Of a stretch of 64,000 nucleotides of DNA, positions 6,001 through 9,000 are shown in pieces (the stretch's first letter is position 1; every line of letters begins with the position of its first letter). The stretch comes from Escherichia coli. GTDB lineage: Bacteria > Pseudomonadota > Gammaproteobacteria > Enterobacterales > Enterobacteriaceae. The position numbers are program-made. The DNA lies in NCBI RefSeq assembly GCF_003018115.1, contig NZ_CP027457.1. One strand, given 5' to 3'.

Positions 6001-9000
6001 AGCTTGTTGAAGCGAAAACTTAAGGATGAAGGTTATAGCTTTAGTCGGTTGTTGCTGGAGGAGCGAATGCGTGTTGCTGTTAATCTTGTATGTTTCCAGC
6101 GAGAGTCTGGACAAGTGATAGCGGAAAAATGTGGTTACTCAAGTAAGTCCTATTTAATTTCTGTATTTCACCAGTATTATGGTGCACCACCTGAGAGCTA
6201 TGCATATTTGCAGAAAGCAGACGTTATCTGATGTTTTTTCATCAGGCATATATTGATTGACTGTATTAGATATAGTCTGAATGTGTTCAGCATAAAAAGT
6301 TATAATCATTTGGTGTTTGCGTGAATATTGATGAGAAAATCAGATGTAGCCAACTGTTACAGCGTATTGAAGCCGTCAATGTGGAACGAACAAAGGTCTT
6401 CAGTCGTCTGACAGTTTTATTTTGTACCCCTGATCGACGTTCAGGTCAGGAGATGGTTCTTCTGGATGTAGATGCACTTCGGAACGTCTGTGAGGAGTTC
6501 ACCGCGGCTAATTCGGAGTTACTGAGTCTTGTTCAGGAGTACAACAGAATTGCAGGTAGTAACGGTTTTGATGAAATCAAAATTATATCCCGTGGATAAA
6601 ACATATCCTGTATATTTATGTTGTTACATACAGGCGCTTTTAGTATCTGCCGCACGGCAGTTGTACTTCAGAATAAGATGCTTTTGTGACTGGTGGTGTT
6701 GTATCTGGGGTTAGCCAGGAGGCAGGTTCAGAGAGTCCGGTGGTAATTATGTGTATGCAGTGGTTGTTGCTGTACCGTGGGCAAGTTCTGGAACTGGCTT
6801 CGTCCATTGTAGATGATTGTTAGCTGGATATCAGTTACCTCATGGAAATGTTAAATGACTCACAATTCGGTTGATGGACTATTGTCTGAACGATGGAAGT
6901 CTTGTAAAAACGAGCCAGCATAGTGAATCCCCCTGTGCGGAGGGGCGTCTGACATGGTCTCCATAGCGATGGTCACAATACGCAGATTCAGTAGTCAGGC
7001 TGAATCTACCGGGAGGCACCCGGCACTATGCTGCTTATGGTGTATACATAGCGATCGGCCCCTCTCCGGAGGGGCTTTTTTTGTGCGGGAAAAGGCTGTG
7101 TTGTTAAGTGTTAAATTCCTCACAGTTCAGATGGTTGATGCTTGCCTGTCTGAGGGGGAGTTGTTAAAAAAGTTCTGCATGGTGAATCCCCCTGTGCGGA
7201 GGGGCGACTGGTGTGATTTGCATCTTTTCTGTTGTAGGCAATGCAAACGCGGGTTCAGGGACACCAGACTGGACTCACCGGGAGGCACCCGGCACCATGT
7301 TCATGATGATACAGATACGCAGTGTCAGCCCCTCTCCTGAGGGGCTTTTTTATGCAGGAAAAACGCTGTGTTGTGAAATGTTAAATTCCTCACAGTTCAG
7401 ATGGTTGATGCTTGCCTGTCTTACGGGGAGTTGTTAAAAAAGTTCTGCATGGTGAATCCCCCTGAGCGGAGGGGCATATCAGCGCAGGTGTTTCTACTCT
7501 ATCCTTTCTGTGCGGGTTCAGGTGCTGATACTGAACTCACCGGGAGGCACCCGGCATCATGCATATGGTTAACAGACACGTAGCGAAGCCCCTCTCCGGA
7601 GGGGCTTTTTTATGCAGGGAAAAGGCTGTGTTGTGAAATGTTAAATTCCTCACAATTCATGAGGTTGATGATTGTCTGATTGATGAGGAGTTTGTTAAAA
7701 AAAACGGGCATGGTGAATCCCCCTGTGCGGAGGGGTGATATCGTATCATTTCCTGTGTGGCCGACTGATATCACGGACATTTGTTCACCGGGAGGCACCC
7801 GGCACCATGCAGTATACAGAGATTAGGCATACATCCAGGCTCCTCATCGCAGGAGCCTTTTTACATGTAAAAAAAAACCGCTCCTGGGAAGAGCGGTTGG
7901 CAAGGAAGCAAGGAATAAATAACAAAACGTGAAGTAATTTATTCAGCACCCTAATAATACCTTAGAGTAATCACCTTGCGCAACTGTAAGGGCGTATTTC
8001 TTTTTTGCGGGCTGTTTTTCTGTGTGACTTTTGTGTTTCCGGAGGTCAGCCCGTGCCTTCTCTGACTCAGAACATTATCCCGGCCGGGAGGATTCATGGC
8101 ATTTAAACACTACGATGTGGTCAGGGCGGCATCGCCGTCAGACCTTGCTGAACGACTGACACAAAAACTGAAGGAGGGCTGGCAGCCATTTGGCAGTCCG
8201 GTGGCCATCACGCCTTATACCCTGATGCAGGCCATTGCGGCGGAAGGTGATGTCACCACACCTGTGGCGGTGACCGGTAATGAGGGTAAGGCGGTGGCTG
8301 TCAGTGCCACCAGCGACCCGGAGTATTACTTTGTTGTGGTTCTGGCAGGGCAGTCAAATGGCATGTCGTATGGTGAAGGTCTTCCGCTGCCGGAGACATA
8401 TGACCGTCCGGACCCGCGTATTAAGCAGCTGGCGCGTCGCAGTACGGTGACACCGGGCGGTGTCGCCTGTAAATATAACGACATCATTCCGGCGGACCAT
8501 TGTCTGCATGATGTGCAGGACATGAGCCGCCTTAACCATCCGAAAGCGGACCTGTCAAAGGGGCAGTACGGTACCGTGGGGCAGGGGCTGCATATCGCCA
8601 AAAAACTGCTGCCGTTTATACCGGCGAATGCGGGCATTCTGCTGGTTCCGTGCTGTCGTGGTGGTTCAGCGTTCACCACCGGAGCTGATGGCACATACAG
8701 TGACGCTGGCGGTGCCTCGGAGAATTCAACCCGCTGGGGTGTGGACAAGCCGCTGTATAAGGACCTTATCGGTCGAACAAAAGCAGCACTGAAGAAGAAC
8801 CCGAAAAATGTGCTGTTTGCCGTGGTGTGGATGCAGGGGGAATTTGATTTTGGCGGCACGCCCGGAAATCACGCAGCACAGTTTGGTGCGCTGGTTGATA
8901 AATTCCGTGCAGACCTGACGGATATGGCAGGCCAGTGCGTTGGTGGCTCTGCTGGCGGTGTTCCCTGGATATGCGGGGACACGACGTATTTCTGGAAGCA

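Follow-up and report, generated by a model that had tools for sequence, protein, structure and literature searches.

The 64,000-nucleotide stretch of Escherichia coli DNA analysed here (the window; contig NZ_CP027457.1 of assembly GCF_003018115.1) carries five full-length plus-strand units of a structured RNA family. Four of them stand head to tail (u1-u4, 6889-7868), and a solo copy lies nearby (4917-5129). The locus lies between the antiterminator gene Q and the lysis genes of a lambdoid prophage, at the 'moron' site of its late region. Its flanking genes encode RusA, Q (684-1355), a DNA methyltransferase, two tRNAs (3942 and 4027), a moron protein resembling the TolA C-terminal domain, an AraC regulator resembling YdeO/GadX, a SASA-type esterase (8096-10060), an endolysin (10958-11491) and an Rz spanin (11973-12446). 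The location matches the small RNA (sRNA) dyad site of Tree et al. The whole window was scanned against the Rfam 15 covariance models, a comparison proposed in a first-pass annotation of this DNA, and all five units were assigned to the catalogued family RF02076 (STnc100), over model positions 1-206 and with 119-172 bits against a gathering score of 47. The array is made of members of an already known RNA family in a known genomic niche (Table 1).

The tandem array of structured repeats and the solo copy that the first-pass annotation had described are present in the sequence, as Rfam units and in the output of Tandem Repeats Finder, which returned a single array (7058-7735, period 270, 82% matches). 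From one array unit to the next, the distance between hairpin-1 blocks is 259, 270 and 261 bp. When the solo copy and u1-u4 are aligned, mean column identity is 74%, and the invariant blocks include GTGAATCCCCCTG.GCGGAGGGG and ACCGGGAGGCACCCGGCA. Terminator-like sites are enriched between 4700 and 8150 (14 versus 2.8 expected), with a plus-strand site at the 3' end of every unit, so the array is a real feature and not a chance pattern. As the annotation had stated, it is not a CRISPR array. Such arrays combine identical repeats of ~25-40 bp with unique spacers of similar length, whereas this array has a period of 259-270 bp and conserved parts that exceed the variable ones in length; no CRISPR repeat family is among the Rfam hits.

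The same spacings bear on whether the repeats are small-protein genes or remnants of a degraded coding gene, the outcome that the annotation had set against its own sRNA proposal. A 128-aa open reading frame (ORF) spans u1-u2, 'hypothetical protein' is annotated under matches in some genomes, and tiny PHROGs of unknown function gave weak hits. However, the array ORFs have no NCBIfam hit, the spacings keep no reading frame, variation in the stems is compensatory, and the 128-aa ORF runs through terminators. The PHROGs hit are families of 39-75 aa and might themselves reflect ORFs called across this conserved DNA. We give a coding origin practically no credence.

Table 1. Predicted genes, array units and spacers of the locus, in window coordinates. 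Arrows mark features read on the minus strand.
Feature	Coordinates	Strand	Evidence	Parts
Solo STnc100-family sRNA gene	4946..5124	+	Rfam 172.4 bits over 4917-5129; fold; terminator	P2 5' strand 4946-4953; hairpin 1 4957-4973; core 4974-5049; hairpin 2 5050-5064; P2 3' strand 5065-5072; linker 5073-5098; terminator 5099-5118 with interrupted T-run; -10-like TGTTAAAAA 4930-4938; upstream invariant TGTTAAAT 4877-4884
Array unit 1 (u1)	6918..7083	+	Rfam 118.8 bits over 6889-7084	core 6946-7008, putative pseudoknot CTGAC/GTCAG; linker 7032-7056; terminator 7057-7076; closing stem GCATAGTG/CACTATGC, a compensated change; upstream TGTTAAAT 6849-6856
Array unit 2 (u2)	7177..7352	+	Rfam 140.8 bits over 7148-7357	core 7205-7277, putative pseudoknot CTGGTGT/ACACCAG, middle hairpin with loop CTTTTCTGTTGTAGGCA; linker 7301-7326; terminator 7327-7346
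Array unit 3 (u3)	7447..7612	+	Rfam 141.7 bits over 7419-7617	core 7475-7539, putative pseudoknot TATCAGCGC/GTGCTGATA, pyrimidine-rich middle; linker 7563-7586; terminator 7587-7606
Array unit 4 (u4)	7708..7863	+	Rfam 141.3 bits over 7679-7868	short core 7736-7787 without P5; linker 7811-7836; terminator 7837-7858
Inter-unit spacer and leader	7084..7176, repeated at 7353-7446 and 7613-7707	+	invariant alignment columns	GCTGTGTTGT; invariant TGTTAAAT...CTCACA(A/G)TTCA; TGTTAAAAAA 7-8 nt before P2
Candidate partner sRNA after the solo copy	5130..5200	-	terminator; EPEC sRNA homology; predicted 5' end	terminator 5158->5137; T-run to 5130; CCTTGCC 5165->5159; -10-like TATTAT 5210->5205
Candidate partner sRNA after the array	7869..7947	-	terminator; diverged EPEC sRNA homologue; predicted 5' end	terminator 7898->7876; duplicated CCTTGC motif 7913->7900; -10-like TATTAT 7959->7954

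Relatives of these units have been studied as sRNAs in enterohaemorrhagic E. coli (EHEC) and enteropathogenic E. coli (EPEC). Hfq-crosslinked sRNAs were reported at this late-region site in eight prophages of the Sakai strain (Tree et al. 2014). Northern sizes in Sakai are ~222 nt for EcOnc05, ~177 nt for EcOnc06 and ~235/247 nt for EcOnc27, whose 247-nt form is destabilised without Hfq. Each of the three published probes is exactly the reverse complement of a stretch within family units: the EcOnc05 target begins 1 nt beyond hairpin 1 (in 50 of the units collected) and the EcOnc06 target 14 nt beyond it (in 14 of them), while the EcOnc27 target was located in the Sakai copy, which scores 207.7 bits with the Rfam STnc100 model and is followed immediately by the convergent sRNA AsxR. 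Eleven STnc100 copies of strain EDL933 have RNA-seq reads, one of them also a Northern, and RpoD signal from chromatin immunoprecipitation with exonuclease digestion (ChIP-exo) has been reported at Salmonella STnc100 copies. In EPEC, PasD1 and PasD2 are abundant and Hfq-dependent and have interaction partners in RIL-seq (ligation and sequencing of interacting RNAs); a 2026 preprint draws a structural link between PasD1/2 and STnc100. The first-pass annotation had proposed a prophage sRNA family with a conserved scaffold, variable parts and its own terminators, which STnc100 matches. It had also named the Hfq-binding sRNAs of EHEC late regions as the likely class, and in this it was right.

The window units share with the family members EcOnc05, EcOnc06 and EcOnc27 of O157 Sakai and sRNA103 of EDL933 the scaffold, the terminator type and the position between Q/PR' and lysis genes. 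In contrast to the Sakai and EDL933 members, four different units stand head to tail here, and the core and linker variants of u1-u4 differ from those probed in the literature. The published accounts consulted make no mention of arrays or of a pseudoknot. What is new is modest: the tandem stacking of non-identical units, the proposed pseudoknot, and a second variable module that reassorts independently.

All five units are built alike. An 8-bp closing stem, P2 (GCATGGTG/CACCATGC), encloses hairpin 1 (CCCCC...GGGG), a core of 52-76 nt and hairpin 2 (CCGGG AGGCA CCCGG), and is followed by a linker of 24-26 nt and a terminator. The two conserved hairpins quoted in the first-pass annotation were found in every copy, u3 having CCCCCTGAGCGGAGGGG. 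Its shared terminal hairpin with a T-run needs some correction: each unit does have a terminator, but that of u4 differs (GGCTCCTCATCGCAGGAGCCTTTTT) and the T-run of the solo copy is interrupted (CTTTCTTAT). Likewise, the stretch between the hairpins is variable as described, but it is not confined to 40-60 nt and does not differ completely, its last ~26 nt, which form hairpin P5, being similar in the solo copy, u2 and u3. Hfq-dependent base-pairing sRNAs are marked by a Rho-independent terminator with a U-tail; u1-u4 have an 8-pair GC-rich stem and a T-run of at least 5, the run of the solo copy being broken (TTCTTAT). Folding of each unit, which the annotation had suggested, gave the same P2-closed multiloop as the minimum free energy structure in all five. 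In a 20-sequence alignment, P2 pairing is kept by changes on both sides in five of its eight pairs. The two hairpins yield no covariation signal because they never vary.

Pairing also appears to extend into the 'variable' core. The start of the core is complementary to the loop of P5, the last hairpin within it, through a pairing sequence that changes from class to class (ATCAGC/GCTGAT, CTGGTG/CACCAG, CTGAC/GTCAG, CGACCA/TGGTCG, GCCAGTC/GACTGGC and others). When the first 14 nt of the core were compared with its last 32 nt in 16 core classes, the longest Watson-Crick run was 5.75 for cognate and 4.31 for non-cognate combinations, and none of 20000 permutations reached the observed mean. Duplex energies, calculated with one representative per class plus PasD1, were -10.0 versus -7.2 kcal/mol (reached by 10 of 50000 permutations). 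The result of the run-length test, which had been defined beforehand, was replicated (5.44 versus 4.30; 5 of 50000; 15 distinct pairing sequences) in an independent set of 18 classes, taken from representative genomes of more than 10 genera and gathered after the pseudoknot idea had formed. The offset of the strands varies by 2-7 nt, and MAFFT cannot register them. In u4, TGATATCG...TGATATCA forms one long hairpin that replaces P5, with TCATTTCCTGTGTGGCC in its loop. No pseudoknot is shown in the 2026 preprint or in the structure line of RF02076. The comparisons support, without proving, a conserved pseudoknot maintained in more than 20 sequence versions. The RNA would then fold into a multi-helix core closed by P2, in which the invariant hairpins 1 and 2 are joined by a variable arm and by P5, whose loop forms a pseudoknot with the core start.

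Conservation is distributed very unevenly along the units. The P2 and hairpin blocks are 91-100% identical between units, whereas cores are 49-72% and linkers 54-77% identical, with ~55% for shuffled sequence. The linker, the 24-26 nt before the terminator, is a second variable segment that the first-pass annotation had missed. Units u2 and u3 are 94% identical upstream and 96% in the terminator, yet only 60% in the core and 62% in the linker; since divergence after duplication cannot give this pattern, the modules must have been exchanged by recombination. We sampled 176 units from 140 sequences and distinguished 37 classes of core and 45 of linker, found together in 55 combinations; nine of the core classes are joined to two or more linker classes, and four of the linker classes to two or more core classes. 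Within the window, u4 joins a unique core to a linker and terminator that are nearly the same as those of Sakai EcOnc27.

The spacers carry elements that we read, by analogy with PasD, as promoter signals. PasD1 is estimated to begin with the first base of P2, at a distance of 7-8 nt from the preceding TTGACT-17/18-TAAAAA, and other genera have a -10-like hexamer 8-12 nt before P2. The window units have TGTTAAAAA, an extended -10 form, before P2, a TTGAYR hexamer 24-25 nt away, and a second invariant element, TGTTAAAT, ~55 nt further upstream. These would make up an extended -10 close to P2 and, possibly, a start further upstream, and the Northern sizes fit both, with ~177 nt expected from P2 and ~222-247 nt from the upstream element. 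The A-rich TTGTTAAAAAA was considered as an ARN site for Hfq in the RNA and dropped, since both the PasD 5' end and the comparison with other genera place this block as the -10 element. On the minus strand, promoter-like sites (TTTACA/TTAACA-16-GACAAT) lie inside the 5' parts of u1 (6908->6881) and u4 (7698->7671). Promoter-like sites in the region as a whole are not above chance (4 versus 5.2 expected).

These elements bear on a reading in which the units are not genes at all but cis-acting parts of the late transcript or of moron mRNAs, serving as stabilisers in the 3' untranslated region, processing sites or insulating terminators. The units do follow moron genes immediately downstream on the PR' strand, the Sakai unit starts 75 nt after stx2B, and a terminator ends each unit. 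However, homologues give discrete Hfq-bound RNAs of unit size in uninduced lysogens, the PasD 5' end falls at P2 just after a good promoter, the -10-like element before P2 recurs in distant genera, and four consecutive terminators would be redundant as insulators. A cis-acting role is in our judgement very unlikely.

We consider it probable that the units are independent Hfq-associated sRNA genes in which a fixed frame carries two hypervariable modules, so that one moron site supplies four regulators. Family membership, anatomy, terminators, covariation, mosaicism and context were computed for the window units themselves. By analogy with the homologues, we infer that the window units are transcribed, bind Hfq and interact with targets. 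Each unit would be a separate gene for an STnc100-family RNA of ~160-235 nt, transcribed from just downstream of the -10-like element that precedes P2, possibly also from ~55 nt further up, and ending at its own intrinsic terminator. The core middle and the 3' linker would be the hypervariable modules, one or both setting target choice by base pairing, and the four regulators of the array would differ in specificity.

Several observations weigh against this interpretation. A simple sigma-70 scan found no plus-strand promoter in the region, so that the unit start sites are placed by analogy with PasD and from the Northern sizes. Three of the 15 classes of the first set have no convincing pseudoknot pairing, and the energy-based test gave a marginal result in the independent set (1442 of 50000 permutations). 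The sole experimentally derived seed of the wider family, that of PasD, lies in the linker, and PasD itself scores 37.7 bits, below the family threshold. Finally, the hairpins are the most conserved part of the units, loops included, and are exact across genera, which is unusual for a base-pairing sRNA. In such RNAs, the seed is normally the best-conserved part.

The last point suggests a different role, in which the invariant scaffold is the working part: a folded, pseudoknotted RNA whose two invariant hairpins bind or sequester a protein or other ligand, with variable parts that are simply tolerated as long as their changes preserve the fold, and arrays that raise the dose. GGTGAATCCCCCTGNGCGGAGGGG and ACCGGGAGGCACCCGGCACC are (nearly) invariant, including their loops, across 20 representatives, the first hairpin block is exact in more than 10 genera, the multiloop with its pseudoknot is more elaborate than a typical Hfq sRNA fold, and part of the core changes only in compensated fashion. 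Against this, homologues are crosslinked to Hfq and PasD forms Hfq-dependent mRNA chimeras through a motif in its variable region. A role in dosage alone predicts that some arrays contain identical units, whereas none of the 10 arrays found repeats a core class. We know of no protein partner of STnc100 units, and none can be inferred from the sequence. A scaffold function seems improbable to us, though it deserves consideration.

If the units are base-pairing regulators, which module carries the seed has to be asked. The first-pass annotation had placed it in the variable core, which is not established: the core is partly structural, holding a putative pseudoknot strand and P5. PasD is the sole relative with interaction data, and its target motif CUCACA(GG) pairs with UGUGAG, which maps to the linker just before the terminator and outside the core. 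The core middles of u2, u3, u4 and EcOnc27 contain a C/U-rich and then G/U-rich motif (YUUUCYUGUGNGG) in a loop or open stretch, resembling a C/U- then G/U-rich motif of PasD, but the case made from this similarity for a seed in the core weakened once the PasD seed had been mapped to the linker. Core middle and linker have mean unpaired probabilities of 0.34-0.72, and either could be the specificity determinant.

Two further sequence features touch on targets. The motif CTCACA, corresponding to the PasD target motif, is invariant in every leader (4886-4891, 6858-6863, 7118-7123, 7388-7393 and 7648-7653). If longer isoforms are made, seeds of the PasD type (UGUGAG) could pair with unit leaders, a speculative form of cross-talk within the family. 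In the u4 core (7750-7760), the loop TTTCCTGTGTG is complementary to the Shine-Dalgarno-type sequence CACACAGGAAA, which we take to be identical to the lacZ ribosome-binding region. This complementarity points to possible pairing of the u4 loop with ribosome-binding sites.

A third possible role is that of sRNA sponges or mimics like AsxR and AgvB, above all GcvB-related ones acting through the G/U-rich motif of the plus-strand spacer or through CACAACA on the minus strand. AsxR and AgvB occupy the same prophage position, the spacer GCTGTGTTGT gives a minus-strand CACAACA at two of three spacers, and in u2-u4 the middle of the core has a C/U run followed by G/U-rich sequence. The gene gltI is a target of GcvB. 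It is also, with yhdW, among the listed target sites of PasD. The first-pass annotation had made a GcvB-like remark about the same motif, which does not hold up: the motif lies outside the units, CACAACA occurs 9 times in the window against 11.4 expected, and the GcvB model (RF00022) reaches 9.5 bits against a gathering score of 42. Being part of the repeated spacer, GCTGTGTTGT recurs at 7095, 7365 and 7625; it is not expected in the RNA of a unit because it lies between the preceding terminator and the -10-like elements. Read on the minus strand, the motif is followed by a hairpin that lacks a T-run. The covariance models of AsxR and AgvB, like that of GcvB, match neither the units nor their minus-strand partners, and anti-sRNAs measure 51-60 nt against ~160-235 nt for the units. 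We hold a sponge function to be unlikely.

The minus-strand partners, for which the preferred reading of independent sRNA genes provides a place, are candidate sRNAs with strong terminators that would converge on the solo copy and on the array, as in published EHEC dyads. Both are homologous to E2348C_1409.E2348C_1408.IGR across promoter, CCUUGCC motif and terminator, the one after the solo copy being near-identical and the one after the array diverged, with its motif duplicated. This EPEC sRNA was found by Hfq RIL-seq, has EcOnc08/21/42 as EHEC homologues and has the target motif GGCAAGG (paper supplement). GGCAAGG is complementary to CCUUGCC in both partners. The partner family is not in Rfam. 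An assignment to AsxR or AgvB was considered and rejected: similarity to the Sakai AsxR region is no more than loose, and the models (RF02703 and RF02702; RNAs of 51-60 nt in which the 5' end varies and a 3' part of 42 nt is conserved) gave no covariance hit at E<=10 in the partner regions or at E<=1 in 4700-8100, while AsxR was found in Sakai at 88 bits as a positive control.

Since a convergent candidate of the EPEC type follows both the solo copy and the array, the window appears to hold two dyads. Like the AsxR/AgvB dyads of EHEC, they consist of a long plus-strand sRNA followed by a short convergent minus-strand sRNA with abutting terminators; unlike them, their partners are of the EcOnc08/21/42 type and one dyad carries four plus-strand genes.

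Sequences matching the array are widespread in E. coli. The array query matched 3097 of the 5426 complete genomes (57%), at up to 11 places per genome, and 88 of them carry at least 80% of the four-unit array. Matching phage records number 354, mostly Stx-converting phages. No annotated feature lies under the array matches in the listed records, while some partial matches elsewhere carry 'hypothetical protein'. With looser motif matching, two or more units on one strand were found in 22 of the 121 sequences first searched. We identified 10 head-to-tail arrays of 2-4 units in the 140 sequences, not all of them independent (L042 is the window locus, and L126 and L133 are near-duplicates); L115 has a shorter version with u1 and u4. 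The matching region of genome H4, which is ~550 bp longer, was examined for a difference in copy number and has the same four units, the extra DNA lying elsewhere. Two- or three-unit arrays with different cores occur in Superficieibacter (L127, 12817-13400, minus strand; L131, 4676-5000, plus strand) and on an unassigned viral contig (L096, 1343-1900, plus strand), those of L127 and L096 being triples. Their units each have their own terminator and a -10-like element just before P2. Head-to-tail arrays of different units recur in several genera.

Distant relatives of the family, PasD1 and PasD2 of EPEC E2348/69, offer a further comparison. They resemble the window units in starting with P2 and hairpin 1, in their pseudoknot logic (ATGATC/GATCAT), in their terminator and in their prophage site near Q. 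They differ in their sub-threshold score, in a degenerate hairpin 2 and in a seed-like motif in the 3' linker; according to the published analysis, their copies, like those of PasA, are dispersed, not tandem. Also in E2348/69, an STnc100 copy beside the EPEC partner sRNA (NC_011601, 1444500-1445100, at 120-160 of that segment, L124) is cut inside hairpin 1 by foreign sequence ending in ...TGTGTATAAGAGACAG, which we take to resemble an IS50/Tn5-type end. Tandem sRNA paralogues are known outside prophages as well. OmrA/OmrB and PrrF1/PrrF2 are chromosomal, shorter, simple stem-loop RNAs. Unlike them, the units described here are ~200 nt long, predicted to be pseudoknotted, prophage-borne and mosaic by recombination. 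The likeness lies in adjacent paralogues that combine a shared scaffold with differing segments, a class used for comparison in the 2026 preprint.

Further observations concern the surroundings of the array. The 3' end of the intact DNA methyltransferase gene (2964-3902) recurs at 5282-5442 as a C-terminal fragment (MALGRRATGVELDTGRFEQT...), for which RefSeq gives a pseudogene in one related genome. Two modules of methylase, moron and sRNA dyad appear to have been joined here by recombination. Of the morons, a 142-aa ORF (4382-4810) matches the TolA C-terminal domain over its C-terminal 90 residues (74.9 bits, TIGR02794) and is called 'tolA' by RefSeq; its N-terminal LILASLTTGC resembles a lipoprotein signal peptide. 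The prophage AraC-family regulator (5506-6231) is nearest to YdeO and GadX (118.6 and 91.2 bits, below the curated cut-offs). Between it and the array, directly upstream of the latter, lies a phage ORF of 92 aa (6321-6599). Elsewhere in the window, Rfam hits include the C4 antisense RNA next to isrK (38404-38589, minus strand), the trp operon leader (47244-47337, minus strand) and STnc180 (59772-59974, plus strand).

A bolder possibility, which we advance tentatively and think less likely to be right than wrong, is that the pseudoknotted RNA is a display frame for two independently reassorting hypervariable cassettes, the core middle and the 3' linker. The family would then be a combinatorial, exchangeable library of regulators in the lambdoid prophages of Enterobacteriaceae, with the invariant hairpins serving a second, sequence-specific partner, and recombination within the invariant blocks would build arrays of non-identical units. 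Because RefSeq annotates nothing under the array, such loci are invisible in most genome analyses. The family adjoins Shiga toxin and other virulence morons, and single-nucleotide polymorphisms in its member EcOnc27 recently ranked with the most powerful genomic predictors of haemolytic uraemic syndrome. The fold, the two shuffling modules and the stacked arrays point to nucleotides to mutate and segments to swap, and they explain why deletions of single copies may show weak phenotypes.

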